From contig QHXX01000032.1 of the NCBI GenBank assembly GCA_003223135.1, positions 21,031-85,030 on the forward strand: a stretch of DNA of 64,000 bases. The letters are read 5' to 3'. The DNA is from Acidobacteriota bacterium (GTDB taxonomy: Bacteria; Acidobacteriota; Polarisedimenticolia; Gp22-AA2). Below are positions 1 to 64,000 of this stretch, piece after piece; position 1 is the first letter of the stretch, and every line of letters begins with the position of its first letter. The notes beneath the pieces were generated by a model. It was not told where the DNA came from. It saw nothing but the letters and a program-made list of their open reading frames with translations, and did no database searches. Made by a program: the position numbers and the translations under genes.

Positions 1-582
1 GTGGCGCCCGCTGGGGTATTGAGTGGTGCGGGACGCCGTGGCGCGGGTCTCCTCGTGCGCGTACTTGCCGTGGATGAGGGCCGTGAACCCCGTCGATGAG
101 AAGCGATCGACGTTCTTCCAGACGTTGAGGACCGACCCGCACGTCGTGTCCACCAGGACACAGCCGCTCGCTCTGAGACGGGCCATCTCCTCGACCGTCA
201 CTCCGAACGCCGGGAGGATGACGACGTCCCGCGGACGGACCGCCTCGAGCCCCGGGCCGCTGCCGTCCGCCTCCCGCAGGAATTGGATCCCCATCTCTTT
301 CAGGCGGGCGTTGACGTGAGGGTTGTGGATGATCTCGCCGACCAGATAAATCGTGCGCTCGGGGAACTTCCTGCGCGTCTCGTAGGCGTATTCGACGGCG
401 CGGTCGACCCCGTAGCAAAAACCGAACTCGCGGGCCAGGAGAAAGGTGAGCCTGCCCGCCTGCAGCCTGTGGCCCGAGGCCTTGAGCCGCTCCACGATGC
501 GGCTGTGGTAATCGGCCAGAAGCTCAGGTCGAATGGCGTCCTTCAGGCCAAAACCGCGCTGGTAATAATCCGTCTCGCCCAT
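1..582 (-). CDS. ispH: 4-hydroxy-3-methylbut-2-enyl diphosphate reductase IspH/LytB (partial; C-terminus lies beyond window start)
   Basis: Minus-strand translation starting at ATG 582 reads MGETDYYQRGFGLKDAIRPELLADYHSRIVERLKASGHRLQAGRLTFLLAREFGFCYGVDRAVEYAYE... The GFCxGVDRA and HNxxV motifs are characteristic of IspH. The ORF runs open to position 1. Confidence 0.75.
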   Translation of the reverse strand, partial: MGETDYYQRGFGLKDAIRPELLADYHSRIVERLKASGHRLQAGRLTFLLAREFGFCYGVDRAVEYAYETRRKFPERTIYLVGEIIHNPHVNARLKEMGIQFLREADGSGPGLEAVRPRDVVILPAFGVTVEEMARLRASGCVLVDTTCGSVLNVWKNVDRFSSTGFTALIHGKYAHEETRATASRTTQYPSGRH

Positions 583-641
583 CGTGTCCACCGCGCCCTG
601 CTCGCACCCCTCCGACGATTCTACACGATGCGGGACCCGCG

Positions 642-1451
642 CTACCTCTCGTCGATGCGCTCCGGACAGGAGGCGACGTTCATGCCGCTGCCGCGCAGGA
701 AGTTCACCAGCGTGATCTGGAACGCCCGGGCGGTCTCGATCGCGAGGGAGGTGGGTCCGGAGATGGCGCAGACCACCGGGATGCCGGCGACGGCCGCCTT
801 CTGCAGGATCTCGAACGAGGTTCGACCCGACACCATGAGGATGGCGTCGTCGGTGCGCAGGCCGTCCATGGCGGTCCTCCCGACCACCTTGTCGACGGCG
901 TTGTGACGGCCGACATCCTCACGGCAGACACGCAGGCGGCCGTCGGGGTCGAAGAGGCCCGAGGCGTGCAGCGCGCCGGTACGTCCGAAGCTTTCCTGGG
1001 CCGCCAGGAGACGCTCCGGCAGCGACTCCAGGACTGCACGCCGGACTCGCAGACCCGACCTCACGGGCGCCGCCTGGATGGCGAGGGCCTCCAGAGACGC
1101 CTTGCCGCACAGTCCGCAGGCGGCGCTCGCCATGAGATTGCGGCGCAGACTCTGGTGGTCGAAGGCGACCCCCGGACGCAGGGAGACTTCGATGACGTTC
1201 ATCGTGCCGTCCTCGGAGCCGCACTGCCGGATGGTGCCGATGTCGTCGATTGACCGCACCACGCCTTCCGTGAGGCAGAAACCGGCCGCCAGCTCGAGAT
1301 CGTGCCCCGGGGTGCGCATGATCACAGCCAGGCTCTGGCCGTCGACGCGGATCTCCATGGGCTCCTCGACCACGATCCAGTCGGAGGTCTCGCGCCTCCG
1401 CCCCTGCCGGATCTTCCAGAGCGTCCACCGTTCCACGGAATCGCGCGGCAT
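642..1451 (-). CDS. fdhD: formate dehydrogenase accessory sulfurtransferase FdhD
   Basis: 269-aa ORF with the GRHNAVDK motif and overall FdhD-like sequence. Confidence 0.8.
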   Translation of the reverse strand: MPRDSVERWTLWKIRQGRRRETSDWIVVEEPMEIRVDGQSLAVIMRTPGHDLELAAGFCLTEGVVRSIDDIGTIRQCGSEDGTMNVIEVSLRPGVAFDHQSLRRNLMASAACGLCGKASLEALAIQAAPVRSGLRVRRAVLESLPERLLAAQESFGRTGALHASGLFDPDGRLRVCREDVGRHNAVDKVVGRTAMDGLRTDDAILMVSGRTSFEILQKAAVAGIPVVCAISGPTSLAIETARAFQITLVNFLRGSGMNVASCPERIDER

Positions 1452-1684
1452 GCACCGTCCATTCTAGGGGCCCGCGTGGATCTTGGGAAGGGTTGCAGGC
1501 GGCCGGAAGGTTCCAAGCGCCCGGGAGGCGGCCGCTGCGGCCGCTCCGCGGACCCTGGACGGCGCGCCACTTAGATCTTGACACCGGCTGGGGCTTCTGC
1601 AAAGGTATGCCGTCATTTCCAGAAATGCGGTTCCACGGGGGGCACGGCAGAAGCCGCGCGAGCGGCCCGGTGCGTGGGGAAGCA

Positions 1685-2464
1685 ATGCGACGGTCGGTCA
1701 TCTGGAGAGGAGCGCTCCTGGCGTCCGCGGCGGCTGCCATGCTGGCCGGTCCTGTCTGGGCGCAGAATCGTGACAAGGCCTGGGAGGTGACGCCCGAGTT
1801 GGGGTGGATCTTCTACGGGAAACCGCACCTGGGGGACGACTCGATCGATCAGACTTTCACTTCGGGGGCGGACACGCAGCGGGACGTGGTGGTGACGACC
1901 TCGGAGATCAAAGACAGTCTGTCTTACGGCTTCCGCTTCGGATACCACTGGACCAAGAAGCAGATGATCGAGTTCGGATTCGGCGGGACGGGGACGAGCG
2001 GGACGTTCTTCCAGCACAAGACGGTGTATAGAGATCCCACACCTCCTCCCCCTCCTCCGCCTACTCCTCCTCCTCCTTTTACGCCCACCACGATCGTGAG
2101 CGACACCCACAAGCAGGAGGACGTCAGCCTCGATCTCATCGTCGGTCATGTCAATTACGTCTACAACTTCTTCCTCCAGCACCGCGGCAAGGTGGTCGCT
2201 TTCGTCACCGGCGGCATCGGGCTGGTCAACAGCAGCATCTTCGGACAGACGGCCGAGCCCGACCTCTCCCCCACCCTCGACATCCTCGTCGGGGACGAGA
2301 ACACGTTCATGTACAACTACGGGGGAGGCATCCGCTTCTTCGGGAGCGAGAAGGCGGGGTTCCGCATCGACGCGCGGCAGGTGCGCTACGAATCGGGTGC
2401 CCGCGGCAGGCAGGACCACATCGAGATCGGGTTCGCGCTCACCCTGATCCTGGGCGGGGCCTAG
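1685..2464 (+). CDS. outer-membrane beta-barrel protein with an internal poly-proline segment
   Basis: ATG at 1685 precedes the signal peptide MRRSVIWRGALLASAAAAMLAGPVWAQ. The sequence has alternating aromatic/hydrophobic beta-strand patterns and a C-terminal ...FALTLILGGA. A PPPPPPPTPPPPFTPTT insert lies at about 2041-2090. Confidence 0.6.
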   Translation: MRRSVIWRGALLASAAAAMLAGPVWAQNRDKAWEVTPELGWIFYGKPHLGDDSIDQTFTSGADTQRDVVVTTSEIKDSLSYGFRFGYHWTKKQMIEFGFGGTGTSGTFFQHKTVYRDPTPPPPPPPTPPPPFTPTTIVSDTHKQEDVSLDLIVGHVNYVYNFFLQHRGKVVAFVTGGIGLVNSSIFGQTAEPDLSPTLDILVGDENTFMYNYGGGIRFFGSEKAGFRIDARQVRYESGARGRQDHIEIGFALTLILGGA

Positions 2465-2584: not shown

Positions 2585-3004
2585 TCATTCTCCCGCCGTT
2601 TCAGGCAGCGCCGCGTCGATCTCCCCGATGAGCACCATGGTGACGAGGGGCGTGAACGTCAGCCAGGGGAACAGACGGGCCTTGAAGCGGCGTGTGCGGT
2701 CCACGAAAGCCTGCTGCAGCGCGTATTGTCCCACGACCTTTTTGATCCTGCTCCCGGTCCCGACGAAGTAGAACAGCGTCATCGTGTGCGTGAACAGGAC
2801 GATCACCATGCCGAACAAGGCGAAGCGGATGTGGGCGCCCACACTCAACGTGCCCGCCGCGGTCCGGTAGCCGTCGTAGGTCATCCAGGCCAGGAGAACC
2901 ACGTTCGCGAGGAAGAGGAAACCGAGGATCCGGGCCACCGGGACGTTCTGCAGCATCGCGGGATTATAGAGGAAACCCCGCGCGGGCACCGCGGGTGGCG
3001 GCAA
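2585..3004 (-). CDS. hypothetical integral membrane protein (about 4 TM)
   Basis: ORF with hydrophobic helices ending 9 nt downstream of the DoxX stop. Start is uncertain: TTG at 3004 or ATG at 2956. Confidence 0.4.
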   Translation of the reverse strand: MPPPAVPARGFLYNPAMLQNVPVARILGFLFLANVVLLAWMTYDGYRTAAGTLSVGAHIRFALFGMVIVLFTHTMTLFYFVGTGSRIKKVVGQYALQQAFVDRTRRFKARLFPWLTFTPLVTMVLIGEIDAALPETAGE

Positions 3005-6308: not shown

Positions 6309-7094
6309 ATGCAGAGTCGCCGCCGGAAGCTGGTGAAGGATCTCAAGGAGCGAGGCGAGCTCCGGGGCTCGAGCACCGCCGGGGCGCTCACCGACCTTCT
6401 GTACGACGAGCTCACCGACCTGCCGACCGTGCCGCTGCTCCTCGGCCGGATCCGTCGCCTGTTGAAGGAATCGCGCCAGCTGGGACTCCTGTCCATCAGC
6501 GTCCTGCAGAATGAGCGCGGAGAGCAGACCCTGGGATGGCAGGGGTACGAGTTTCTGGTGCGCAGCGTCGCCTCCTTCCTGGTCGAGATCAAGAAGGTCG
6601 CGCTCCGGCAGGACGACTACGTCTCCGAGGTGATGATCAGCGGCAACGCCTTCGTGATCCTGCTGTCACCACCGCGCGGCAAACAGGAGATCGCCTACAC
6701 CGACCTCGACAAGGTGCGGCGGCGCGTCGCCGCCAGGCTGGAGCGCTTCGTCCGGGATCGCCTGGCGGCCGAGGTGCAGGAAACGTTCGGTCTGTACGTC
6801 GGCTGCGCCGTGCTGATTCACAATTCCTCGGTGCGCTTCGAGCGTCTGGTCTACTCCGCTCTGGAGCAGGCCTTCACCGACTCGCTGCAGCAGCGCAAAA
6901 GGGAACAGCGCGACGCCGCGCTCAAGCTGAGGATGATCTTGAAGGCGGAGGCAGTCCAGCCCGTCTACCAGCCGGTCATTGATCTGCTGGAGCGGCGGGT
7001 GGTCGGATTCGAGGCCCTGACCCGCGTGTCGCCCGACGCCTTCGCCGGCCCCGACCAGCTGTTCAAGGCCGCCTACGACAACGACTCGGTCTGA
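6309..7094 (+). CDS. degenerate GGDEF-like domain plus N-terminal part of EAL domain (gene interrupted at 7092)
   Basis: LTDLPT...ISGNAFVILL aligns to GGDEF with the motif replaced by SGNAF. The C-terminus QPVYQPVIDL...GFEALTR...LFKAAYDNDSV is the start of an EAL domain, followed by a stop. Confidence 0.6.
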   Translation: MQSRRRKLVKDLKERGELRGSSTAGALTDLLYDELTDLPTVPLLLGRIRRLLKESRQLGLLSISVLQNERGEQTLGWQGYEFLVRSVASFLVEIKKVALRQDDYVSEVMISGNAFVILLSPPRGKQEIAYTDLDKVRRRVAARLERFVRDRLAAEVQETFGLYVGCAVLIHNSSVRFERLVYSALEQAFTDSLQQRKREQRDAALKLRMILKAEAVQPVYQPVIDLLERRVVGFEALTRVSPDAFAGPDQLFKAAYDNDSV

Positions 7095-7105
7095 TCGTCC
7101 TGGAA

Positions 7106-7492
7106 ATGACCGAGCACTCCGCGGTGCGCGACTTCACGTCACTGCGGCAGCTCCTCAGCTATCTCCAATTCCACGGGTTCCGGCTGGCGGTGGACGACGT
7201 TGGCTCGGGGTACTCGGGCCTGAAGTCCATCGCCGAGATCAAGCCGGACTTCATCAAGATCGACATGGCGCTCATCCGCGACATCCATCTTCATCCGATC
7301 AAGCAGGACCTGACCGGAACCATCGCCCGCTTCTCGACCAGCTCCGGCATCACTCTCATCGCCGAGGGGGTGGAGGGGTCCGAGGAACTGCGCTGCCTGC
7401 AGGCGATCGGCGTGCGCTACGCTCAGGGTTTCCTGTTTGCGCGCCCCGGGCCACCCTTCCCGCAGGCCGATCTCAGCGCCATCGAGGAGTAG
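7106..7492 (+). CDS. C-terminal part of EAL phosphodiesterase domain (continues the preceding gene in another frame)
   Basis: GLIVLEMTEH...LAVDDVGSGYSGL...IKIDMALIRDI...LIAEGVE...QGFLF are EAL motifs. The frame is open upstream across the stop of the previous ORF. Confidence 0.55.
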   Translation: MTEHSAVRDFTSLRQLLSYLQFHGFRLAVDDVGSGYSGLKSIAEIKPDFIKIDMALIRDIHLHPIKQDLTGTIARFSTSSGITLIAEGVEGSEELRCLQAIGVRYAQGFLFARPGPPFPQADLSAIEE

Positions 7493-50668: not shown

Positions 50669-50751
50669 GCCGGGCCAGGAGCCAGGAGCCGCACCTCGAC
50701 CGAGCCCGCACCGCCGACCTGGCAGCCCGATTTCCCGGCGTCTCCCTCCTG

Positions 50752-51672
50752 GTGGTCGGCGACCTGATGATCGATCAGTACCTGTGGGGTGGGGTGTCGC
50801 GCATTTCTCCCGAAGCGCCGGTGCCGGTCGTCAGGCTGGAGCGCGAGAGTTTTCGGCTCGGCGGCGCAGGCAACGTTGTCAACAACCTGGTGTCCCTCGG
50901 CGCGCGGGCCATTCCCGCGGGCGTGCGCGGCGACGATCGTCAGGGCGAGCTCCTCGAGACCTTCTGCCGCGACGCGGGCATTCCGACGGAGGCCCTGGTC
51001 CTGGCCCCCGGCCGGCCCACCACGGTCAAGACACGGGTGATCGCGCACAACCAGCAGGTGGTGCGGGTCGACCGAGAGGTGGACGGACCTCTCGAGGCGG
51101 GAGTCGCCGGTCGCCTCGCAGAGAGGGCCCTGTCGAGCCTGGAGCGCGTTCAAGGGCTGGTGGTTTCCGATTATGACAAGGGCGGGGTTTCGGCGGACCT
51201 CCTGGCGACGCTCCTGCCGGATGCGGCCCGGCGACGCCTGCCCATCGTGGTGGATCCGAAGGTCCGCCTCTTCCGGCATTACCGTCCGGCGACCGTCGTG
51301 ACACCCAATTCACGGGAGGCCATGGAGGCGACCGGCATGTCGGCGCGCACCGACGAGGAGTTCGAGACGGTTGGCCGCAGGCTCCTGGAAATTCTGGACG
51401 GCCCCTGCGTCCTGATCACACGCGGGGAGCGGGGCATGCTGCTTCTGAAAAGGGGCGGTCCTTCGCTCGCGATCCCCGCGACGGCACGTGAGGTGTTCGA
51501 TGTGACGGGAGCGGGGGACACGGTGGCGGCGACGCTTGCCCTGGCCCTGGGAGCCGGCGCGGACATGGAGGAGGCGGCTCTGCTCGCAAACCGCGCCGCC
51601 GGAGTGGTGGTCGGCAAGGTAGGCACCGCCACGCTGACGGTGCAGGAGCTGCTGGACGCCATCGGTCAGTGA
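50752..51672 (+). CDS. hldE: D-glycero-beta-D-manno-heptose-7-phosphate kinase (HldE kinase domain / RfaE domain I, PfkB family)
   Basis: GTG start. LVSLGARAIPAGVRGDDRQGELL, DVTGAGDTVAATLALAL, and otherwise RfaE-I-like. Conserved N-terminal residues (ADLAARFPGVSLLVVGD) are encoded in frame upstream of any canonical start codon. Confidence 0.75.
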   Translation: MVGDLMIDQYLWGGVSRISPEAPVPVVRLERESFRLGGAGNVVNNLVSLGARAIPAGVRGDDRQGELLETFCRDAGIPTEALVLAPGRPTTVKTRVIAHNQQVVRVDREVDGPLEAGVAGRLAERALSSLERVQGLVVSDYDKGGVSADLLATLLPDAARRRLPIVVDPKVRLFRHYRPATVVTPNSREAMEATGMSARTDEEFETVGRRLLEILDGPCVLITRGERGMLLLKRGGPSLAIPATAREVFDVTGAGDTVAATLALALGAGADMEEAALLANRAAGVVVGKVGTATLTVQELLDAIGQ

Positions 51673-51683
51673 CGTCCCCGGGC

Positions 51684-52415
51684 TCAGGTCGCGGACGAAA
51701 GACGGACGACGATTCCGAGCGTCAGAAGGGCCCAGAGGAGCCGGCAGATCTCGAAATCCTTCAGCGTCGAACCGCGGCACAGATCACGCAAAGTGGTAGG
51801 CCGCTCGCAATGCGACAGGAGCGTCCACTCCTCCAGCGAGAGGGTGAGGTCGCGGCTCATGTCCTCGAGACCCGGTGCCGTCTGGTAACGCATCTCCAGG
51901 TCGCCGACCGCCTCCCAGATTCTCTCCCAACTTTCGATCCTCCGGATCCCTTCGAGGATGGTGTTCCCCGCGCTCAGCTTCAGCGTGATGACTTCGTCGG
52001 TGGGCAGATCGCCGGGGCGGTAGCGATACCGCCCGCGCGTCCACAGAAACAGGCTGCAGACGATGTTCCGGACTTGGCAGCGCACCCCCTCCACGAGGTC
52101 ATGCGCCTCGATCAGCTCCATCTCCACGAGGACCGTGCCGAGCCGCTTGCCCTCTTCCGCGGCGCGCTCGAGGGCGCCCATGAGTCCTTCCAGGCTCACG
52201 AGCCCGGCCTTGAAGAAGATCTGCCCGACGCGATCGTCGCGATCGTTGGAGGTGGCAAACACCGGCCGTCCCGACTGGATGTAGATCGACTTCTCGATCG
52301 TGTCCCCGGTCAGGGTCAGCACGCCGGTCTCTTTCCTGCGCAGGACGGAATACACCAGACCCGGAAACGTCGTGGTGGAGAGAATTCCTTCGCGCGGCTG
52401 GCTGTCCTTCGGCAT
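51684..52415 (-). CDS. DUF4388 domain-containing protein
   Basis: Start MPKDSQPREGIL is preceded by GAGAGAG. The FPGLVYSVLRRKETGVLTL N-terminus is typical of DUF4388. Confidence 0.55.
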   Translation of the reverse strand: MPKDSQPREGILSTTTFPGLVYSVLRRKETGVLTLTGDTIEKSIYIQSGRPVFATSNDRDDRVGQIFFKAGLVSLEGLMGALERAAEEGKRLGTVLVEMELIEAHDLVEGVRCQVRNIVCSLFLWTRGRYRYRPGDLPTDEVITLKLSAGNTILEGIRRIESWERIWEAVGDLEMRYQTAPGLEDMSRDLTLSLEEWTLLSHCERPTTLRDLCRGSTLKDFEICRLLWALLTLGIVVRLSSAT

Positions 52416-52720
52416 CTCTCTCGATCGACCCCCGGTACAGTAGGGACAGGATCGCCATTTGTCAATGAGACGATGACTGTCTTCGCAAGCGAAATAAATT
52501 CGACTATCCCTCGTCCCTGGAGTAAGATAGGGGTCGCTGCAAACGCTCAGCAGGCCGATTACAAATGTTTCTTGACGAATCTTTTGCATGACGGCACACT
52601 TGCACTAGTCGGCGCTTCCCCGTACCTTCACAGGCCTCACGAAGCGTCGATGCAGTAGTGAGCGGCAGGCTGGACGTCAGGTCCGCGACCACAGGGCACC
52701 GGTGCCAGGGGAACGGCAAG

Positions 52721-53899
52721 ATGGAACAGGAGCTGCGGGGAAGTACCCGGCTGGGCAATTACCTCCGCAGGCTCAGAATCGGATACGGTCTCTCGTTGCG
52801 CAGGGTCGAGGACAAGGCCAAGACCGGCGGCGGCGAGATCGACAATTCCCAGTTGTCCCGTTATGAGCGCGGCAAGTGTTACCCGTCCTTCGACAAGCTG
52901 TGCCTCCTGGCCAACATTTTCAACGTCCCCATCCAGAACTTCTCGGACGTGCTCGATCTCGAGAGGGTCGATCCGTTCGAGCCGGCCCCGTCGGCCGCCT
53001 ACGAAGACCTGAAGGCGGAGGCCAACCGGGAGTGGGACCAGGGAAACTACGCACGGGCCTACGCCATCTACGAAACGGCCCTGGCGCGCCTCGAGGACGG
53101 CGTCGAGGGACAGGTGGACGCGGAGATCCTGGCCAGGGCGCGCTTCAACCTGGCCCGCACGCTCCTGCGCATGGGGAAGATCAGCCTCGCGGAGACCGAG
53201 CTGCGGCTGATTCTGCGGCGCCACAAGGACATCTCGCCGACGACCGAGGGCGCCGTCCTGGGGTGCCTGGCCGACGCCCACGAAGACAAGGGCGACCGGT
53301 ACCTGGCGCTCCTCGAGTCGGAAAAGGCCCTCGCCATCGCCCGTCGATCTGTCAACGTCGAATATGAAGGCTACGCCCTGCATCGCATCGGACGACTGCA
53401 CTTCCTCGATGCCAATTACGACATGGCCCTCGAGAGCTTCCGCGAAGCGCGTGTACTTCTGGAGGGGAAGGCCGGCCGCTACGATCTGACGCTCCTCCGG
53501 ATCAACATCGGCTTCTGCCAGGCCATGCTGGGCCGCCTGGACCGGGGCATCCGCGAGCTGAAGGAAGCGCTCCAGGTCGCTGGCAAGGAAGGCTTCCGCC
53601 GGTGCTCAACGTACGCGCTCCTGTACCTCGGGCAGGTCCACATGCTCAAAGAAGAGCACGTCCGGGCGCGCGATTACTTTGAGGAAGCGGAGCTTCTGGC
53701 GCACGGCGGCGAAGAGAGATTCGTCGACATCCTGTTCCAGACGGCCTACCACCTCTGGGAAATGGCCCGGATGTCCAGGAACCAGGTGCAGGAGAAAGTG
53801 TACTTTGGCCGCTTGAAGTTCCTGCGCTCCCAGCTCGACCGTCAGTTCCAGGAGGTCGAGAAGTTCGACCAGTACATCGAACAAGGAAAGGGTCGGTGA
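52721..53899 (+). CDS. XRE-family helix-turn-helix transcriptional regulator with TPR repeats
   Basis: LGNYLRRLRIGYGLSLRRVEDKA...SQLSRYERGK HTH, followed by about 300 aa of TPR-like helical repeats. Confidence 0.65.
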   Translation: MEQELRGSTRLGNYLRRLRIGYGLSLRRVEDKAKTGGGEIDNSQLSRYERGKCYPSFDKLCLLANIFNVPIQNFSDVLDLERVDPFEPAPSAAYEDLKAEANREWDQGNYARAYAIYETALARLEDGVEGQVDAEILARARFNLARTLLRMGKISLAETELRLILRRHKDISPTTEGAVLGCLADAHEDKGDRYLALLESEKALAIARRSVNVEYEGYALHRIGRLHFLDANYDMALESFREARVLLEGKAGRYDLTLLRINIGFCQAMLGRLDRGIRELKEALQVAGKEGFRRCSTYALLYLGQVHMLKEEHVRARDYFEEAELLAHGGEERFVDILFQTAYHLWEMARMSRNQVQEKVYFGRLKFLRSQLDRQFQEVEKFDQYIEQGKGR

Positions 53900-53903
53900 T
53901 CCC

Positions 53904-54668
53904 GTGAACAGGCTGCGCGGCACTCGGTCCTGGGCAACGGTCGCGGCGCTTCTGCTCTTCCCCTCCATGGTGCTGGCCGAGGTCAGCGTGCAGGTCGACA
54001 GCCTCGGCAACTACAAGCGCTTTGTGTACCTGACGGTCGGCAAGGGACGCACTGCCGTTGTCTGGCGCCAGATGCGGGCGCGCCTGCCACAGAACCTGGT
54101 GTTGAATCCCCTCGGGGACAACCTCGGCGACCGGCCGCCCGTCATCCAGGTCTCCCCGGTGACCGGCTATCCCTGGGTCGTGTGGCCTAAGAATTTCGGC
54201 AACATCAAGCTGCTCGTTTCAGCGACCTGGGAAGGTACGGGCAAGAAATGGACCGAGCCGTCCCTGATAGCACCGGGCGCCCCGCTGGTCTACGATGACC
54301 TGGATCCTTCCCTTGCGATCGACGGGTCCGGCACGCTCTACCTCGTCTGGTCGCGGGCGGAACAGACGGCGAAGGTGTACTTCAGCACGATGATCCAGGG
54401 TCGATGGACTCCGGCGCTGCTGATCAGTGAGGCGACCGTCGACGGTCGAGCGCCTTCGATTGTGCTGAGCGGCAAGACGGCGATCATCAGCTACCAGACG
54501 CCGGCCGGCCCCGTGACGAGGAATTACCAGGCCGCGTCCCTGGTGCAGAGCGCTGCCAGCCTGATGGACAACCCGATCCCTCCGCTCTTCGGTCCCCCTC
54601 CGGGTGGAGACAATCCCTCAGGTGGCGGCGGCGGCGGCGGAGGCCACGCGGGGATTTACAGGGAGTAG
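53904..54668 (+). CDS. secreted hypothetical protein with C-terminal Pro/Gly-rich poly-glycine tail
   Basis: GTG start 4 nt after the regulator stop. Signal peptide MNRLRGTRSWATVAALLLFPSMVLA. Beta-rich, with tail ...PIPPLFGPPPGGDNPSGGGGGGGGHAGIYRE. Confidence 0.5.
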   Translation: MNRLRGTRSWATVAALLLFPSMVLAEVSVQVDSLGNYKRFVYLTVGKGRTAVVWRQMRARLPQNLVLNPLGDNLGDRPPVIQVSPVTGYPWVVWPKNFGNIKLLVSATWEGTGKKWTEPSLIAPGAPLVYDDLDPSLAIDGSGTLYLVWSRAEQTAKVYFSTMIQGRWTPALLISEATVDGRAPSIVLSGKTAIISYQTPAGPVTRNYQAASLVQSAASLMDNPIPPLFGPPPGGDNPSGGGGGGGGHAGIYRE

Positions 54669-54686
54669 GAACCGACCTCGACGACT

Positions 54687-54716
54687 AAAAAACCCGGCTG
54701 CAAGGCCGGGTTTTTT
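54687..54716. terminator. bidirectional rho-independent terminator
   Basis: Sequence aaaaaa-CCCGGC-tgcaag-GCCGGG-tttttt. It lies between the convergent secreted-protein gene and lapA. Confidence 0.8.
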
Positions 54717-54743
54717 GTGCCCGCAGATGGACCCCGCGCCTAG

Positions 54744-55073
54744 CTAGGAGGCACCCTCCGTCCCGGCCGGCCCGCCGGCCGATCCTTCGTTGCGGGCCAG
54801 GCGCAGGCGCAGCGCGTCCGCCTCTTCCTCGAGACGCCGCAATTGCCTCCGAAGCTGGCGGTTCGTGATCCGGATCTTGATCCCGTCGATCACGCCGATG
54901 GTGCATGCGAAGGCGACGCCGAAGATCGCGGCCGTCGCCATCACCGCGCCCATCGGCACCGGGCCGACACGCCAGACGAAGAGGTTGACGGTCACGTCGG
55001 AGCTGTTGTAAACGCCCACGACGAACAGAACGATGAAGAAGAAGAAGACGACGAGGTAGACCAGGATGTTCAC
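54744..55073 (-). CDS. lapA: LapA family protein (DUF1049, lipopolysaccharide assembly protein A-like)
   Basis: GTG start after GGAGG. Two TM helices (NILVYLVVFFFFIVLFVVGV...) plus a C-terminal coiled-coil RQLRRQLRRLEEEADALRLRLA. The start overlaps the kdsC stop (GTGA). Confidence 0.6.
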   Translation of the reverse strand: MNILVYLVVFFFFIVLFVVGVYNSSDVTVNLFVWRVGPVPMGAVMATAAIFGVAFACTIGVIDGIKIRITNRQLRRQLRRLEEEADALRLRLARNEGSAGGPAGTEGAS

Positions 55074-55657
55074 CGATGAGCCTCCGCCGCGCGCGCGGCC
55101 CGGCCGCGGCGCCCCCCGGACCACGCCGGATCGAACCACGCGAGCACTTCCCTCCACCTGCCCTGGGCCTTGAGGATCTCGTCGATGACCTCGCGCACGG
55201 CGCCACGACCCCCCGCCGCGCGCGTCACGAACAGGGCCCGCCGCAGCACCTCGGGACGCGCGTCCGCCACGGCCACCGGCATGCCGACCCGGCCCAGGAC
55301 CGGCAGGTCAGTGAGGTCGTCACCGATGTAGCAGACCTGCGCGTCGGTCAGCTTCTGGCGGCGCAGGATCCGCTCGTAGGCCGTGAGCTTGTCCCTGACC
55401 CGCAGATGGACCTCGTGCATGCCGAGCTCCTCGGCCCGCCGGGAGACGGCGGCGCTGCTGCGGCCCGAAATGACGCCGGTGCGCAGTCCGATCCTGCGGG
55501 CGATTGAAAGTCCGACGCCGTCCCGGGCGTCGTAGGTCTTCGCTTCCGCGGATCCCTCGATGAACGAGATGCCGCCGTCAGTCAGAACACCGTCCACATC
55601 CATCAGGATCAGGGCGATCGGGCGCGCGCGCGGAACGAGCGGCCGTCGGCACCTCAT
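55070..55657 (-). CDS. kdsC: 3-deoxy-D-manno-octulosonate 8-phosphate phosphatase KdsC (HAD)
   Basis: ILMDVDGVLTDG (DxD motif) and GDDLTDLP. ATG is preceded by GGAGGGGGG. Confidence 0.8.
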   Translation of the reverse strand: MRCRRPLVPRARPIALILMDVDGVLTDGGISFIEGSAEAKTYDARDGVGLSIARRIGLRTGVISGRSSAAVSRRAEELGMHEVHLRVRDKLTAYERILRRQKLTDAQVCYIGDDLTDLPVLGRVGMPVAVADARPEVLRRALFVTRAAGGRGAVREVIDEILKAQGRWREVLAWFDPAWSGGRRGRAARAAEAHR

Positions 55658-55690
55658 GGAGTCCCCCCTCCGGTCCCGGGGCACGACATC

Positions 55691-56647
55691 CTAGAACAGC
55701 TGCGTCCGCCACAGGTCGTGGATGTGCAGGACGCCCTCGACGCGATTCTGCGCGTCGACGACGACCAATGAGGTGATCTTCCGCGCCTCAAGGATATTGA
55801 GCGCAGCCACCGCGAGCTCCTGCCGTCCGATGGTGACCGGGTTCTGCGACATTACGCCGTCCACGGTCATCGTCAGGAGATTTTCCCCGCGCCCGAGACG
55901 CCGGCGCAGGTCGCCGTCGGTGACGACCCCCGCCAGTGTCCCGTCCTCGCGCACGACACAGGTCATCCCGAGCTTCCTGTCACTCATGGTCTTGATGGCG
56001 TCGCGCATCGATGTGCCGATCGGGACAAGGGGCGCGTCGCTTCCGGCGTGCATGACGTGCGCGACCGTGACCACCTTCCTGCCGATGTGGCCCCCGGGGT
56101 GGAAGCGGGCGAAGTCGTCCGGCGTGAGGCCGCGCCTCTCGAGAAGCGCCATCGCCAGGGCGTCTCCCATCGCGAGCGCGGCCGTCGTGCTTGCTGTGGG
56201 CACCAGGCCCAGGGGCGACGCCTCCTGTTCGATCCGCACGTCCAGGACGATGCGCGAATGGCGTGACAGGGTCGAGCCGGGGCTGCCGGTCATCGCGATC
56301 AGCGCGACATCGAGCCGCCTGATGAGCTCGAGAAGCCGCAGGATCTCCTCCGTCTCACCGCTTTGCGAAATGGCCAGGACGACGTCGCCGGGGACGACCA
56401 TGCCGATATCCCCGTGCACCGCTTCCGCCGGGTGCATGAACAGGGACGGTGTCCCGGTGCTGCTGAAGGTGGCGGCGATCTTGGCGCCGATGAGACCCGA
56501 CTTGCCCATCCCGGTCACGACGACCCGCCCCTTGCACGCGTACAGGGCGTCGATCGCCCGGTCGAACGCGTCGCCCAGGCGGGGCACCAGGTCCAGGATG
56601 GCGCGCGCCTCCAGCTCGAGGACCTTGCGGGCAATCGTCCGGGGCAT
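55691..56647 (-). CDS. kdsD: arabinose-5-phosphate isomerase KdsD/KpsF (SIS + tandem CBS)
   Basis: Start MPRTIARKVLELEA. GRVVVTGMGKSG SIS motif and two CBS domains. The ATG shares one base with the kdsA stop. Confidence 0.85.
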   Translation of the reverse strand: MPRTIARKVLELEARAILDLVPRLGDAFDRAIDALYACKGRVVVTGMGKSGLIGAKIAATFSSTGTPSLFMHPAEAVHGDIGMVVPGDVVLAISQSGETEEILRLLELIRRLDVALIAMTGSPGSTLSRHSRIVLDVRIEQEASPLGLVPTASTTAALAMGDALAMALLERRGLTPDDFARFHPGGHIGRKVVTVAHVMHAGSDAPLVPIGTSMRDAIKTMSDRKLGMTCVVREDGTLAGVVTDGDLRRRLGRGENLLTMTVDGVMSQNPVTIGRQELAVAALNILEARKITSLVVVDAQNRVEGVLHIHDLWRTQLF

Positions 56648-57462
56648 CAGCCGTTCCTGACGATGACGTCGATGGCGGCGACCTGTCGCAGAAGCCGGTC
56701 GAGCGCGTCCAGAGGCAGGGAGTTCGGCCCGTCGCTCTTCGCCGCCTTCGGATCGTCGTGTACCTCGCAGAACAGCGCGTCGATCCCGACCGCGGAGGCC
56801 GCACGGGCGAGAACCGGAATGAACTCCGCGTCGCCCCCGCTCCTGTCTCCGAGCCCACCGGGGTGCTGCACGGAGTGGGTCGCATCCATGATCACCGGGT
56901 ATCCGAAGCCGCGCATCACCGCGAGCGATCGAAAGTCCACCACGAGATTCTGGTAGCCGAAGGTTGTGCCGCGCTCGGTGACCATGACCTTTTCGTTTCC
57001 CGCCGAACGCACCTTGTCGATGGCATGGCGCATCTCCCAGGGCGACAGGAACTGTCCTTTCTTGATGTTGACCGGCTGTCCGGTGCGGCCGGCGGCCACG
57101 AGCAGGTCGGTCTGCCGGCAGAGGAACGCAGGGATCTGAATCACATCCAGGACGCCGGCGGCCTCCTCCGCCTGGCCGGGCTCGTGGATGTCCGCGAGCA
57201 CAGGGACACCCACCTCCGACTTGACCGCCTTCAGGATCCGCAGCCCCTCCCTGAGACCGGGACCGCGGAACGACTCCATCGAGCTGCGGTTGGCCTTGTC
57301 GAATGAGGACTTGAAGACATAAGGAATGCCGCGCTCCCGGGCGATCTTCGAAAGCGCGCGCGCCATGCGCAGGGCGTGCGTCTCGCTTTCGATCACGCAC
57401 GGGCCGGCGATGAGCGCCAGGGGCGCACCGTCGCCGATCGCGAGCTCGGGGCTGATCTCCAC
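56647..57462 (-). CDS. kdsA: 3-deoxy-8-phosphooctulonate synthase KdsA
   Basis: LALIAGPCVIESE, KSSFDKANRSS and VPVLADIH motifs. Start is taken at GTG (VEISPEL); the upstream alternative GTG at 57522 would overlap pyrG. Confidence 0.85.
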   Translation of the reverse strand: MEISPELAIGDGAPLALIAGPCVIESETHALRMARALSKIARERGIPYVFKSSFDKANRSSMESFRGPGLREGLRILKAVKSEVGVPVLADIHEPGQAEEAAGVLDVIQIPAFLCRQTDLLVAAGRTGQPVNIKKGQFLSPWEMRHAIDKVRSAGNEKVMVTERGTTFGYQNLVVDFRSLAVMRGFGYPVIMDATHSVQHPGGLGDRSGGDAEFIPVLARAASAVGIDALFCEVHDDPKAAKSDGPNSLPLDALDRLLRQVAAIDVIVRNG

Positions 57463-57487
57463 TCGCCGGGTCCGCCCGGCGCCCGGG

Positions 57488-59107
57488 TCAGCGCTGGGTC
57501 TGCCGGAATTGTTTGCAGGCACCGACGAAGCTCCTGAACAGGGGGTGGGGGAGCATCGGCTTCGACTTGAACTCGGGATGGAACTGGCAGGACAGGAAAT
57601 ACGGATGATCCGGGATCTCCATGATCTCCACGAACCGGCGGTCGGGCGTTTCGCCGCTGACCCGCAGCCCTTTCTTCACCATGGCGTCGAGATACTCCCG
57701 GTTCACCTCGTAGCGGTGACGGTGACGCTCGCTGATCTCCGACTTGCCGTAGGCGTTCTGGGCCTTCGAGCCCGGCTGCAGGACGCAGGGCCACTTGCCG
57801 AGGCGCATGTTGCCACCCATGCGCTCCACCCCCTCGAGCTCGCGCAACTTGTAGATCACCGGGTGCGGCGTTCCCGGGTTGAACTCGGCTGAATCGGCGT
57901 CCTTCAGGCCGCAGACGTTGCGGGCGAATTCGATCACGGCGCATTGCAGCCCCAGGCAGATGCCGAAGAAGGGGATCTTGCGCTCGCGCGCGTGCCTGAT
58001 CGCCTCGAGCATCCCGGCCACGCCTCGGATCCCGAATCCGCCGGGCACCAGGATCCCGTGGCACGGGGCGATCGCCTCCCCCAACTGACCATCGCTGAGA
58101 TTGTCGGCCTCGATCCAGCGCAACTTGACCCGCACGTCGATGGCGATGCCTCCGTGGCACAAAGCCTCGTTCAGGCTCTTGTAGGAGTCCTCGTAGGTGA
58201 CGTACTTCCCGACGATCCCGATCGCCACGTCCCCGGCCGCGGGGGTCTTGATCTTTTCGACCATGCGCACCCAGTCGTCCATGTTCTTGTCGCGGTACGG
58301 CAGGTCGAGGAGCTTGAGCAGGATGGCGTCCAGACCCTCCCGCGCGAGGACCAGAGGGACCTCGTAGATCGTCTCCACGTCCTTGGCGGTGATGACCGCG
58401 TCCTCGGGCACGTTGCAGAAGAGGGCGATCTTCTTCTTGATCTCCTTCGGAATAAACCGGTCGGTCCGGCACATGAGCACATCGGGCTGGATGCCGATCG
58501 CCCGAAGGTCGCGCACCGAGTGCTGCGTCGGCTTCGTCTTCAGCTCCCCGGACGCCCCGATGTAGGGCACCAGCGTGAGGTGGACGAAGACGGCGTCGAT
58601 GCGGCCGACCTCCAGTCGGAACTGGCGGATGGCCTCCAGGAACGGCAGCGATTCGATGTCGCCGACCGTCCCCCCGATCTCCACGATCTGGATATCCGCG
58701 CCCTTCGAGATCTTGCGGATGCTTTGCTTGATCTCGTCCGTCACGTGCGGAATGACCTGCACGGTGCCGCCCAGGTAGTCGCCGCGCCGCTCCTTGGCGA
58801 TCACCTGCTCGTAAATCCTGCCGCTCGTGAAGTTGTGGTCGCGCGTGCTCACGGAGGAAGTGAATCGCTCGTAGTGCCCCAGGTCGAGGTCGGTCTCCAC
58901 GCCGTCCTCGGTCACGTACACCTCGCCGTGCTGGAAGGGGCTCATGGTGCCGGGATCGACGTTGAGGTAAGGATCGAGCTTCTGCAGCGTCACGCTGAAG
59001 CCGCGGGCCTCCATGAGGCGGCCGATCGAGGCGGCCGCCAGACCCTTCCCCAGCGAGGACACCACACCGCCTGTGATGAAAATGTACTTGGTCGGCACGT
59101 TCAGCAC
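57488..59107 (-). CDS. pyrG: CTP synthase
   Basis: 539 aa with a canonical PyrG synthetase domain and a glutamine amidotransferase domain (GICLGLQ). Confidence 0.95.
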
Positions 59108-59108
59108 C

Positions 59109-59900
59109 TCATGAGGACGTCCGAAGCGCCTGCTCCACCGCGCGGACGTCGTCGGGGGTGTCGACCCCGTGATAGCGTCCGCGCGCCCTCAGGACCTTGA
59201 TCGTGCGGCCCCGCTCGAGCGTGCGGAGCTGCTCCAGCCCTTCGAGCTCTTCCAAAACGCCGGGACTCCAGGAGGCGAACTCGAGCAGGAACCCGCGCCG
59301 GTACGCGTACAGGCCGACGTGCCGCAGCCACGGGCGCGATCGCTCCGCGACCGCGGCGTCGGGCAGATCCGCGACGTCCGCCGGCGCCCGACCCGCCCGT
59401 CCCTCCCGGGCCAGGACGTACGGAATCGGGCTCCGCGAGAAATACAGCGCTCTCCCGGAGGCGTCGCAGACGACCTTGACGACGTTTGAATCGCGCGCCT
59501 CCTCCGCGTCGAGAAGCGGGTCCGCGAGCGTCGCCATGTCCGACGACGGATCCGAGTCGAGGCACTCGACCAGCCCGTCGATGTCCCGTGGATCAAGGAG
59601 CGGTTCGTCGCCCTGTATGTTGACGAACACGTCCGCGGAGAGAGAGCGCGCCACTTCCGCCAGGCGGTCCGTGCCCGAGGCGTGCGTCGGAGACGTCATC
59701 GCGACCTCGCCGCCGAACGCGCGCACCGCGGAGGCGATGCGCTCGTCGTCCGTCGCCACCAGGAGCCGCGCGATCCGACCCGCGGAGCGCGCGCGCTCGA
59801 ACACGCGCTCGACGAGGGTCCGGCCGTCGATGAGTGCGAGGGGTTTTCCGGGAAACCGGGACGACTGGTAGCGGGCCGGGATGACACCGACAGCGTGCAT
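59109..59900 (-). CDS. kdsB: 3-deoxy-manno-octulosonate cytidylyltransferase KdsB
   Basis: Start [25 protein letters not shown] and NIQGDEPL motifs. Confidence 0.85.
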
Positions 59901-60128
59901 GGCTGCCTGGGGCGTCGGTTGCCGCATCGAAGAATGTTAGCGCACGCCGCTCGGGCAAGTCAAAGGAATTTCCCGGCGCGCGCAGGCGTGCCGCGCGGGC
60001 GGAACGGCGCGCGGGCGCGCGAAATCTCTGGACAGCGCGACGCGCGATGCTAATATTATGCGACGCGCGGTTGATCGCCGCGACGTGCTTCGCGGGCCAC
60101 GGCTCACTCGCCGGCAGGAGGGCCTCGA

Positions 60129-60593
60129 ATGGCAGGAGAGGTCGAGAAAAACCTGGAAGCAGCGGGATACCGGCTCCCGGAGGTCGGAAAGCCTCTCGGG
60201 ACGTACGTTCAGAGCGTGAGATGCAGCAACTTCCTCTACATCTCGGGCAAACTGCCCAAGGAGAACGGACGCCTCAAGTACCCCGGGAAGATCGGGCGCG
60301 AGGTGACCGTCGAGGAGGGGAAGGACGCGGCTCGCCTCGCCGCCCTCAGCGTTCTCGCGACCGCCAAGCAGGCCGTCGAGGATCTGGATCGGGTGAAGAG
60401 GATCGTCGAGGTCACCGGTTACGTCGCCGTGGCGCCGGGTTTCCTGGACGCGTTCGAGGTGCTCGAGGGCGCCTCCGAAGTCTTCGTGAAGGTGTACGGC
60501 GAGCGCGGCAGGCACGCGCGGCTCGGGGTCGGAGTGGCCGAGCTGCCGTCCAACGCCTGCCTGCAGCTGCAGGCGATTCTTGAAGTCGAGTAG
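60129..60593 (+). CDS. Rid (YjgF/RutC/L-PSP) family protein
   Basis: 154 aa with a chorismate-mutase-like fold signature. ATG is preceded by AGGAGGG. Confidence 0.65.
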   Translation: MAGEVEKNLEAAGYRLPEVGKPLGTYVQSVRCSNFLYISGKLPKENGRLKYPGKIGREVTVEEGKDAARLAALSVLATAKQAVEDLDRVKRIVEVTGYVAVAPGFLDAFEVLEGASEVFVKVYGERGRHARLGVGVAELPSNACLQLQAILEVE

Positions 60594-60599
60594 CGCCGC

Positions 60600-60971
60600 G
60601 TGAACCTCCCCTTCAAGCAGCACGTCCTGATCTGCACCGGCCCGCGCTGCGGAGGGGAGCGCCACTCCGAGCGCATCCGCCAGGAGTTCCGCAGGCAGTT
60701 CGTCCGCCAGTCGCTGCCGACCTCCGTCAAGGACACGCCGTGCATCTGCTTTGGTCTGTGCAGCTTTGGCCCGAATGTGATCATCTACCCGGATGGCGTC
60801 GTGTACAGCGGCGTCAAGCCGCAGGACGTGGCCGAAATCGTGCGCGAACACCTGCTGCGCGGTCGAGTCGTCGAGCGCCTGTTGCTCAGGAAGACCGCGA
60901 CAGCGCCGGCCGATTCCCCTGACGGTCAGGACCCCGAAGACGGTCCGGTCCCGGACGACACCCGCACCTGA
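60600..60971 (+). CDS. thioredoxin-like [2Fe-2S] ferredoxin
   Basis: CTGPRC...C...CxxxC cysteine pattern (VLICTGPRCGGERH...PCICFGLCSFGPNV). Confidence 0.6.
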   Translation: MNLPFKQHVLICTGPRCGGERHSERIRQEFRRQFVRQSLPTSVKDTPCICFGLCSFGPNVIIYPDGVVYSGVKPQDVAEIVREHLLRGRVVERLLLRKTATAPADSPDGQDPEDGPVPDDTRT

Positions 60972-61047
60972 GAATCCCCGGCCTCCCGGGATCGGGACTG
61001 CCGCCCGGGGGGGCCCGACGCGACCCTGGCGGGACTATAATCACCGC

Positions 61048-62073
61048 ATGAACGTAACTCGGGGGGAAGACGACAGGCCGGGCCTTCTCGTCGATCGATT
61101 CGGCCGGGTCGTGCGCAGTCTGCGTCTCTCCGTGACCGACCGCTGCAACCTGCGCTGCCAGTACTGCATGCCCGAAGGTGAGATCCCCTGGTTTCCGAAG
61201 GAACGAATTCTGACTTTTGAGGAGATCGAGCGCGTCGCAAGGCACCTGGCCTTGCTGGGCGTGGCGGAGATCCGGCTCACCGGGGGAGAACCGCTCCTGC
61301 GCAGGGACCTTCCGGTCCTGGTGCGGCTGCTGTCGCGCATCGAGGGGATCGAGGATCTGGCGGTGACCACGAACGGCCTGCTGCTCGAGGAAATGGCCGG
61401 GCCGCTCCTCAGGGCCGGAGTGCGTCGGTTCAACGTGCACATCGATTCTCTCGATCCGGCCAGCTTCGCCGCCCTCAGCCGGCGGAATGGCCTCCCACGC
61501 GTGCTCGCAGGCCTCAGCGAGCTGGAGCGGCTCGGCGCCATCCCCGTCAAGATCAACGTGGTCCTGGTGCGCGGCGTCAACGACGACCAGATAGAGCGCT
61601 TCGTCGACCTGGCGTTGCGCCGACCCTACCAGGTCCGCTTCATCGAGCTGATGCCGCTGGGAGGCGGGGAGCCGTTCGAGATGGACAGGCTGGTGCCGGG
61701 CCGCGAGGTGAAGCGACGGATCGAGTCGATGAAGCCGCTCCTGCCGATCGGCCGCGACCGGCCCTCGGCCCCGGCCAACGTCTACCGGCTGGCGGACGGT
61801 CTCGGCGATATCGGCTTCATCAATCCGGTGACCGAGCCGTTCTGCGGCGACTGCGATCGGATCCGGCTGACCGCCGACGGCAAGATCCGCAACTGCCTGT
61901 TCGCGCGCGCCGAGACCGACATCGCCGCCCTGCTGCGCGACGGCAGTCCGGACGAGAGCATCAGCGCCGCGCTGCGGGCCGCCGTCGCCGCCAAGGGTGC
62001 GGGAGGGTGCCTGGATCTGCACCAGTTCTACCGCGACCGGCTGCCACGCAAGATGTGGCAGATCGGCGGTTAG
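61048..62073 (+). CDS. moaA: GTP 3',8-cyclase MoaA
   Basis: Start MNVTRGED. CNLRCQYC radical SAM motif and C-terminal CGDCDRIRLTADGKIRNCLF. Confidence 0.9.
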   Translation: MNVTRGEDDRPGLLVDRFGRVVRSLRLSVTDRCNLRCQYCMPEGEIPWFPKERILTFEEIERVARHLALLGVAEIRLTGGEPLLRRDLPVLVRLLSRIEGIEDLAVTTNGLLLEEMAGPLLRAGVRRFNVHIDSLDPASFAALSRRNGLPRVLAGLSELERLGAIPVKINVVLVRGVNDDQIERFVDLALRRPYQVRFIELMPLGGGEPFEMDRLVPGREVKRRIESMKPLLPIGRDRPSAPANVYRLADGLGDIGFINPVTEPFCGDCDRIRLTADGKIRNCLFARAETDIAALLRDGSPDESISAALRAAVAAKGAGGCLDLHQFYRDRLPRKMWQIGG

Positions 62074-62142
62074 GTCTGTAGGGACTTCTCCGGCGGTGTC
62101 GAGCCCCTTCGCGCCGCGCCGAAACCGCCCCCACTTTCCGCT

Positions 62143-62964
62143 GTGCTATGCTTCCACGCTCCGGAGGGAAGGGTGTCGGCGGGGATCGCGATCGGTTTTT
62201 TCACCAGCGCCGCGGCGGGGATCCTGGGGGCGCTGCTGCTCGCCCCTTTCCGGGAGCTGGGGCGATTTTTCTTCGTCCTCAACGCCGGGCTGGCCTTCCT
62301 CTTGCTGTGTCTGGCGGCGCCTTTCCGGGTGTCCTCGCCGTCCGCCGCTCCCGCCGGCCGAATTCTCGCGGCGGTTGCCATGGCGCTTTTGATCGGCTAT
62401 GTCTCGGCGCTCCTGCTGCTGCGCCGGGGACGATCCTGGACGGGTCTTCTGGTCCCGGCCGCGGCCGCGGCACTTCTCGCCACGGCAGAGGACGGCTGGG
62501 CGGCGGCGGGGGAGCGCGGACCGAAGTGGATGTTCAGCGTCGCGGCCCTGTGCGCCGCGGCTCTGCTCGGGTCGGTCACGGTCGGCATGCTCCTGGGTCA
62601 CTGGTACCTCGTGAGGACCCGGCTGGACGTGTCCCACCTGGAGACCTTTGCTCGTTTTTTCGCCATCTCCCTCGTCGCCAGGGCCGCGTTCTTCGTGGCC
62701 GGCCTCCTCTGGACCGGCGCACGTTCGCCCCTGGGGCTCGGGCTCTTCCTGTCGGAGATCGCGATCGATCGGGGGGTGTTCTTCTGGCAACGCGTGTTCT
62801 TCGGGTTCCTGGGCCCCGCGGCGTTCGCTTACATGGTGCACGAGACGGCGCGCATCCGCTCCACCCAGTCGGCGACCGGCATCCTCTATCTCGGGGTGAT
62901 CTTCGTGGTCTACGGAGAATTCCTGGCCCGTTACCTGGCTCTCGCCGGAGCGGGGCCGATGTGA
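62143..62964 (+). CDS. hypothetical polytopic membrane protein
   Basis: Third-position GC of about 80% in this frame, against about 55% in the overlapping 62148 frame. 7-8 TM helices. GTG at 62176 after GGAGGGAAGG is an alternative start. Confidence 0.45.
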   Translation: MLCFHAPEGRVSAGIAIGFFTSAAAGILGALLLAPFRELGRFFFVLNAGLAFLLLCLAAPFRVSSPSAAPAGRILAAVAMALLIGYVSALLLLRRGRSWTGLLVPAAAAALLATAEDGWAAAGERGPKWMFSVAALCAAALLGSVTVGMLLGHWYLVRTRLDVSHLETFARFFAISLVARAAFFVAGLLWTGARSPLGLGLFLSEIAIDRGVFFWQRVFFGFLGPAAFAYMVHETARIRSTQSATGILYLGVIFVVYGEFLARYLALAGAGPM

Positions 62965-62996
62965 GCAGCGGGAGGCGCGCCGCAAGGGGGTTGAGC

Positions 62997-63422
62997 GTGG
63001 CGTTCCTTTGCGATCGCTGCGGCCGGGAGGCCGTGCAGGCGCTCGGGTCGGACGCGCGCCCGGCGACCTGTCCGGGATGCGGGCTGAGGTTCGAGGCGCC
63101 CGCGGGCGGGGCCCTGCCCGCGTCGCGGCTCCTGTCGCGATGTCTTCGCTGCGGCCTGGATCGGCTCTACGTCCAGAAGGATTTCAACAAGAAGGCCGGG
63201 CTGTGGGTGTTCATCGTGGCGGCGCTCCTGAGCGTCCCCACCTGGGGACTGAGCCTCCTGGCGGCGACGATCATCGATCTGATCCTTTATTTCGCGCTGG
63301 GAGACGCGACGCTGTGCTACGGCTGCGGTGCTTTGCACCGCGGCTTCCGGAAGAACCCGGACCACGGAGACTTCGACATCCACATCCAGGAGTCGGTGGA
63401 CCGCCGCGTGCGGACGGCCTGA
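62997..63422 (+). CDS. membrane protein with two zinc-ribbon pairs (4x CxxC)
   Basis: GTG after AAGGGGG. The four CxxC motifs are CDRC, CPGC, CLRC and CYGC, flanking two TM helices. Confidence 0.5.
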   Translation: MAFLCDRCGREAVQALGSDARPATCPGCGLRFEAPAGGALPASRLLSRCLRCGLDRLYVQKDFNKKAGLWVFIVAALLSVPTWGLSLLAATIIDLILYFALGDATLCYGCGALHRGFRKNPDHGDFDIHIQESVDRRVRTA

Positions 63423-63430
63423 GAAGACGA

Positions 63431-64000
63431 TGACGCTCACGACGAAGGAGACGCAGGTCGAGGGCGCGGGCCCCGCCGGCGAGGCGGGAGACAGGAGCGA
63501 CTGGAAGGTCGTCCTGCAGTTCTTCATCGTGCCCCTGGCGCTGGTGGCGGTCCTGGTCACGGTCTTCTTCGGGCTTCAGGTCCTGCGCTCGCGCCATCCT
63601 GATCCCCGGACGACGCTCGACGACCTGGAGTCCAAAGGAGGGTTTCTCCTGCCGTGGGTGGGCGACCCGAAGCGCTGGCAGTCGGGCTACGACCTGTCGC
63701 TCCTGCTGCGCTCCGGCGACGGGGTGTCGACCGCCGCGATCCTGCCGGAGATGATGCGCGCCTTCCATGACGCCCGCCACCCGGGAGACCCGAAGCTGCG
63801 GCGTTACCTGGCGCTGGCGCTCGGGCGCACGGGCGACGCGCGGGCCGGAACCGTTCTCGCGGAGGGGCTCGAAGACGGCGACGGCGAGACGCGGCTCAAC
63901 TGCGCGTGGGGGTTGATGCAGATCGGCGGCGCGCCGGCCCTTGGCGTGTTGCGGCAGGCGGTCACATCCCACGTCGATGCGGGAGTCCGGAAGATGGCCA
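63431..64000 (+). CDS. HEAT-repeat (PBS-lyase-like) protein with N-terminal TM anchor (partial, continues beyond window)
   Basis: MTLTTKETQVEGAG...VVLQFFIVPLALVAVLVTVFFGL, then HEAT-like repeats (PKLRRYLALALGRTGDARA, GETRLNCAWGLMQIGGAPA). The ORF is open to the window end. Confidence 0.5.

Follow-up and report, generated by a model that had tools for sequence, protein, structure and literature searches.

Block losses and a tandem duplication in conserved genes of a soil Acidobacteriota genome are very probably errors of assembly

Two kinds of genome are known to present conserved genes in an interrupted state. In genomes that undergo reductive evolution, such as those of Mycobacterium leprae and of insect endosymbionts, many conserved genes can be interrupted within a short stretch. 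Metagenome-assembled genomes (MAGs) obtained from short reads can give a similar picture through local misassemblies and collapsed scaffold gaps, which are reportedly dealt with in the literature on MAG curation (Chen et al. 2020, Genome Research). Here, we describe a stretch of 64,000 nucleotides (nt) of contig QHXX01000032.1 (assembly GCA_003223135.1, forward strand, positions 21,031-85,030), in which groEL, thiG, lptD, polA, tatA and four further genes are damaged. This whole stretch is called the window, and coordinates are window positions. It is highly probable, in our view, that the nine lesions are not a biological feature but arose where contigs of a short-read MAG were joined with a collapse or a faulty repair, and intact versions of groEL, thiG, lptD, polA, tatA and the rest are almost certainly present in the organism itself.

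The window has a G+C content of 67%, and its third-position GC content marks dense, ordinary bacterial genes. An exact-protein look-up with GroES retrieved the same locus on many soil metagenome contigs, and later look-ups span positions 905-63899. The resulting comparison set represents an uncultivated population of soil Acidobacteriota and comprises at least 10 assemblies that are independent of one another. It includes assemblies from ENA (CRIT18-1_SAMN089028xx scaffolds 134, 119, 317, 170 and 370), several MEGAHIT k141 contigs, one of which is 106 kb long, the JGI contig Ga0209157_1000936 and the NCBI MAGs GCA_001920795.1 ('Acidobacteria bacterium 13_1_20CM_2_68_14'), GCA_001919375.1 and GCA_009771655.1. 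In alignments, the window and the population contigs share 99.2-99.9% nucleotide identity. More distant relatives among the species-representative genomes carry the labels Acidobacteriota, Candidatus Polarisedimenticolia or gp22; a scan of species-representative genome contigs with LolA matched other species, with at most 88% amino-acid identity. The gene order and all lesion-affected genes are intact in more distant species of the same class.

Lesions were surveyed by aligning the window with all near-identical contigs, and a lesion was defined as a site at which every covering contig disagrees with the window. Nine structural differences are private to the window, namely eight block deletions and one tandem duplication, which are located between 2.6 and 46.5 kb and are spaced 3.7-8 kb apart. 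Protein lengths in amino acids (aa) are those of the relatives unless stated otherwise:

2585-3004, minus strand: hypothetical membrane protein gene (168 aa); 135 nt lost in frame at junction 2634/2635, codons ~108-153
6309-7492, plus strand: EAL-domain gene (449 aa); 166 nt lost at junction 7093, codons ~262-317, frameshift
12640-13234, plus strand: thiG (259 aa); 185 nt lost at junction 12871/12872, codons ~78-140 including the KLEVIGD segment, frameshift
16339-16866, plus strand: exact 264-nt tandem duplication (16339-16602 = 16603-16866) in a fumarylacetoacetate (FAA) hydrolase-family gene
21151-23642, plus strand: lptD (891-892 aa); split by a 187-nt deletion at junction 22742/22743, codons ~531-593, frameshift
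30570-31731, plus strand: nucleotide pyrophosphatase/phosphodiesterase (NPP) gene, Pfam Phosphodiest; 182 nt lost at junction 30791/30792, frameshift
36583-39117, plus strand: polA (844 aa, 902 aa in relatives); 174 nt lost in frame at junction 38068/38069, codons ~496-554, the start of the polymerase domain
41915-43377, minus strand: groEL (543 aa, with two exceptions given below); 169 nt lost at junction ~42449-42453, residues 309-365 of 543, frameshift
46400-46545, plus strand: tatA/B region (TatA 122 aa); 160 nt lost at junction 46480/46481

None of these nine lesions is present in any covering contig (3-10 sources per site). Comparison of each lesion site with orthologues had been proposed in the initial annotation of this sequence, and in the near-identical relatives all nine sites proved to be intact; the hypothetical membrane protein gene, for instance, is complete in the population contigs L007, L008 and L009. 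Alignment to the population contigs revealed no private lesion within 46481-63899. Apart from one 3-nt microsatellite change, the window contains no private insertions or deletions (indels) of 1-100 nt, and private single-nucleotide polymorphisms (SNPs) are restricted to a handful, about 4 of which are located in the first 46 kb. The junctions of the deletions share 0-3 nt of microhomology, and microhomology-mediated deletion was rejected because these overlaps are so short.

The gene products mirror the losses. Pfam profile coordinates have holes that match the deletions in Cpn60 (covered at 1-299 and 333-488), ThiG (1-77 and 134-247), EAL (4-54 and 117-236) and DNA_pol_A. The stop codon of the N-terminal EAL fragment straddles the junction, and residues 1-308 and 366-543 of GroEL are 100% identical to the intact orthologue, without extra stops in the gene fragments. 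The duplication adds 88 codons in frame to the FAA hydrolase-family gene (16236-17366), whose product has 376 aa, compared to 288 aa in all relatives. In tatA, the lost block comprises the start codon together with the ribosome-binding site and the sequence for the N-terminal transmembrane helix (MFGSIGGPELLVIFVIALLIFGPKK...). A 51-nt 'overlap' reported there by blastn was discarded as an alignment artefact of a low-complexity stretch. Upstream of tatA, the (GAT)n microsatellite at 46401-46411 has one more repeat unit in the window than in any relative.

Much of this had been recognized in the initial annotation. The absence of one block, accompanied by a change of frame, from each of groEL, thiG and the EAL gene is borne out by the alignments and the Pfam holes, and the tandem duplication of 264 bp is indeed perfect. 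The supposed single-nucleotide frameshifts in lptD (near 22735) and in the NPP gene (near 30780), however, are losses of whole blocks. Six genes had been listed as damaged, five of which carry lesions, whereas the sixth, an hldE-like kinase gene, is undamaged. The lesions outside these six genes are the duplication, which had been noted, and those in polA, tatA and the hypothetical protein gene, which had been missed. In addition, kdsB and moaA were considered and dismissed as lesions, since correct products of 263 and 341 aa are on record.

The lesions can be followed into the public record. When the proteins of the window were looked up by exact match among about 15 billion proteins, matches were found for several, all on a single NCBI contig of 107,119 nt labelled 'MAG: Acidobacteria bacterium'. 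The 844-aa PolA that results from the polA deletion is deposited as PYT36727.1. PYT36700.1 (DMF52_05905) is the 261-aa EAL fragment. PYT36712.1 (DMF52_05990) is an LptD fragment of 543 aa that continues for 13 codons beyond its junction, and the second half of LptD is deposited as PYT36713.1 (DMF52_05995). At least three junctions, those in polA, EAL and lptD, are therefore part of the deposited sequence, and no Ns are found there. The groEL fragments, the thiG fragments and the duplicated 376-aa hydrolase were not found in the protein collection, which fits an annotation as pseudogenes or the use of other start codons. A 32-mer spanning the polA junction had no match in JGI metagenome contigs, and a scan of these contigs with pyrG returned distant relatives only.

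The lesions are best read as an assembly artefact because they are private to one assembly, while the affected genes are intact in independent assemblies of the same population. Further support comes from the gaps of a sibling assembly. The left breakpoints of the lptD and NPP deletions coincide, to the same nucleotide, with N10 scaffold gaps of the near-identical scaffold_134; by our own estimate, the chance of two such coincidences for eight random positions in ~51 kb is ~2e-5. The sibling assemblies are also not free of artefacts elsewhere, as scaffold_317 has an N100 gap flanked by a duplicated end of 55 nt and scaffold_370 contains privately split genes. Loss of either groEL or lptD cannot normally be tolerated by a diderm bacterium.

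How such joins could arise may be outlined as follows. Contig pieces would have been wrongly joined at nine places of the deposited contig. At eight of these joins, two assembled pieces would have been connected without the 135-187 bp of genuine sequence that separates them, and at the remaining one, 264 bp would have been written twice. The sites would thus correspond to contig joins or scaffold gaps that were left without spacer or filling sequence, either through the loss of N runs or through an automated local repair that joined the flanks directly. A loss of gap content is suggested because pieces of 3.7-8 kb are separated by losses shorter than a read. The sibling scaffolds derive from the BioSamples SAMN089028xx, which we infer to belong to project PRJNA449266. 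In the work published on this project, IDBA-UD was used for the assembly and scaffolding of reads that had been trimmed to 200 nt, and the dereplicated bins were subjected to an automated correction of 'scaffolding errors' (PMC6784897). This correction flags regions of zero coverage and reassembles nearby reads with Velvet; regions that cannot be fixed are replaced by Ns or lead to a break of the scaffold (PMC5079060).

Several points weigh against this outline. A matching gap in a sibling assembly was seen at only two of the nine junctions: the agreement is exact at lptD and NPP and loose at groEL, and none was seen at the other six sites. Strain variation, which could have explained in general why assemblies break at these positions, was rejected as such a cause, since unusual variability is not seen in five of the eight missing blocks; those of groEL, lptD and NPP are in the 84th-98th percentile of variability in the population, whereas the other five are ordinary or invariant. 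The exact overlap of 264 nt exceeds both the 200-nt reads and the maximum k-mer; it is not what an unmerged contig overlap would most simply produce. L025, a deposit of the same class with scaffold names that suggest the same soil study, keeps an N run, and a wholesale stripping of Ns is thus not proven. Finally, the assignment of the MAG to PRJNA449266 is drawn from its near-identity to contigs of those samples, and the pipeline step behind the joins is likewise one that we infer.

The nearest competitor of collapsed N gaps is a different step that would create the same class of artefact. Here, the Velvet patching itself would have pasted flanks together or inserted a patch twice. This is a possible, if not the favoured, origin of the lesions: the procedure has been described for datasets of this kind (PMC5079060) and was applied in the project (PMC6784897), and it would account for an exact duplication longer than a read as well as for the N runs kept in L025. 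The cluster of private SNPs that adjoins the groEL junction would also agree with it. The case for faulty patching is indirect, however, and the syntenic 20 kb is free of comparable lesions in L021 and L025, two '_curated' MAG scaffolds from related species. The latter result neither supports nor excludes that the artefact is systematic across deposits which apparently come from the same soil study. Initially, a metagenome assembly with uncorrected indels had been suggested as one explanation; the diagnosis of an assembly quality problem holds, but what was lost are blocks on the scale of read length and not small indels. The related idea that nanopore or PacBio reads left uncorrected errors has the several frameshifts in conserved genes in its favour and is nonetheless scarcely tenable: private indels of 1-2 nt or in homopolymers are absent from the window, all lesions are clean blocks of 135-264 nt, and Illumina short reads were assembled for both the sibling data and the likely source project (PMC6784897).

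A biological origin would require that a decaying or mutator lineage, as considered initially, lost segments of eight genes while a part of a ninth became duplicated. The lesions are located in the deposited genome and not in the window alone, and the few private SNPs indicate that the window is a slightly distinct consensus, both of which speak for such a lineage. We still regard it as very improbable. The eight deletions fall into one narrow size class and are not accompanied by a spectrum of small indels, the gene fragments are identical in amino-acid sequence to intact orthologues, and among the genes hit are groEL, lptD, polA and tatA, whose sole syntenic locus is intact in relatives and other species. 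Moreover, two breakpoints are located exactly on gaps of a sibling scaffold, and the lesions are shared by none of the at least 10 population assemblies. The specific case in which a size-specific, microhomology-free process generated real deletions of ~135-187 nt and the 264-nt duplication in one lineage would mean that the bacterium undergoes a recurrent excision of roughly 170 nt that has not been described in bacteria, and that the MAG represents a non-viable or relic-DNA subpopulation; this carries hardly any weight. That the window was edited after download, deliberately or by accident, by removing blocks and duplicating one, is also very unlikely. The uniform sizes, the clean junctions without microhomology, the absence of the 376-aa protein and of the groEL and thiG fragments from the protein collection and the lack of the polA junction in JGI contigs would all agree with editing. 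However, PYT36727.1, PYT36700.1 and PYT36712.1, encoded on the single 107,119-nt contig, carry three of the junctions in NCBI, which rules out later editing for these three and makes it unlikely for the other six; breakpoints match gaps of the sibling scaffold, and a pseudogene call by the annotator would explain why the groEL and thiG fragments are missing.

Some of the affected loci deserve attention in their own right. Assemblies of this population repeatedly run into difficulty at groEL (window 42250-42600; L006 11435-11617; L015 467-590). Three or four private SNPs are found within 25 nt of the groEL junction in the window, two of which are synonymous and affect third codon positions, and this cluster suggests a switch to the allele of another strain. 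At the same spot, contig WNEQ01000860.1 of GCA_009771655.1 ends inside the gene with a divergent tail of 93% identity, and in contig MNKL01000024.1 of GCA_001920795.1, a private in-frame deletion of 63 nt, flanked by GTGAT repeats, results in a GroEL of 522 aa. In the NPP gene, the missing block includes the segment SSTFP...GVYPDRHGIVNN, which we take to be a putative catalytic motif. In some contigs of the population, the region encoding the signal peptide (30573-30700) has been shortened or diverges strongly: L015 lacks 86 nt of it, and L018 has many substitutions as well as an N100 gap with duplicated ends. Judged from these alignments, the 5' region of the NPP gene is a strain-variable hotspot just upstream of the junction in the window. 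At their 3' ends, the convergent genes grpE and NPP overlap by ~98 nt in relatives (window 31634-31731; L015 10874-11578 and 11481-12683); this is either a genuine overlap or the result of a mis-called stop or extension.

Directly upstream of the lptD junction, at 22560-22742, LptD contains an insert with two copies of the motif GCDN(R/L)PGTG(G/D)(F/Y)GEGNG(I/V)(V/L)D and an acidic stretch between them. Intact orthologues have this insert as well; it looks like a repeat of the calcium-binding type, which would be unusual for LptD. In scaffold_134 (L001 13976-14338; window position ~39920), a gene for a response regulator with an HD domain contains a unique insertion of 353 nt and an N10 gap; it encodes 489 aa there, compared to 367 aa everywhere else, the window included. 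An unmerged overlap was rejected as the origin of the extra sequence, which is unique and matches nothing else in the locus, and it is probably a chimeric join in that assembly.

The hldE-like kinase gene is located in the part of the window that has no lesions:

50719-51672, plus strand: PfkB/HldE-like sugar kinase gene, no lesion, likely start codon CTG at 50719

The initial annotation had noted, correctly, that conserved N-terminal residues are encoded upstream of any ATG, GTG or TTG, and had counted this as a lesion; the latter view does not hold, as the region is identical, base for base and including the CTG, in 11 of 11 near-identical relatives. The product meets the description of a PfkB-family sugar kinase that resembles the kinase domain of HldE/RfaE, as its orthologues are listed with PfkB (PF00294) and the LLVVGD strand is encoded in frame and can be reached from the CTG. 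The first canonical in-frame starts, GTG at 50752 and ATG at 50767, would both cut into this strand. In two NCBI MAG records, the annotated product has 317 aa and begins at the CTG, and a related gp22 species has a GTG one codon downstream of the CTG position. Most likely, the start at CTG 50719 is a population-wide feature and not a sequence error. It resembles non-AUG (CTG) starts of other bacterial genes in that codons for the conserved N-terminal beta-strand of the PfkB fold precede the first ATG, GTG or TTG; it differs in that it is known from sequence and annotation, with a GTG in the related species. Further downstream, codon 320 of pyrG (58140) carries a private non-synonymous SNP, by which the window encodes Ile and five of five relatives encode Asn (GGIA[I/N]DVRV); the window-specific variant is deposited as PYT36780.1, which is likewise encoded on the 107,119-nt contig.

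The lesions have practical rather than biological consequences, given that the organism almost certainly possesses normal groEL, lptD, polA, thiG and tatA genes. They are a data-quality flag for a public MAG, possibly a species representative, in which, along part of a 107-kb contig, an unmarked join occurs roughly every 5 kb. Truncated products, such as an 844-aa 'DNA polymerase I' and the split LptD and EAL 'hypothetical proteins', are now present in nr and in protein clusters. Pseudogene counts, calls of missing pathways (thiamine, lipopolysaccharide transport, Tat export) and estimates of genome decay that are based on this MAG would mislead. If automated correction or the handling of Ns was the cause, other genomes of the same batch may be affected.

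Compared to the pseudogenes of reductive evolution, with which it shares the accumulation of interrupted conserved genes in a short stretch, the window lacks a small-indel spectrum as well as accumulated substitutions or stops, and its lesions are absent from close relatives and hit essential single-copy genes. From other local misassemblies in short-read MAGs, it differs in the high density of its lesions, nine within 44 kb and then none over the next 17 kb, and in that its joins are unmarked and contain no Ns, so that annotation yielded truncated proteins which were deposited. In its other traits, the window matches these misassemblies: the lesions are private to one assembly, joins have lost or repeated blocks on the scale of read length, two of the lesions coincide with N gaps of a sibling scaffold, and apparent frameshifts appear in essential genes. 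The lesions are thus a case of a familiar class of local misassembly in short-read MAGs.

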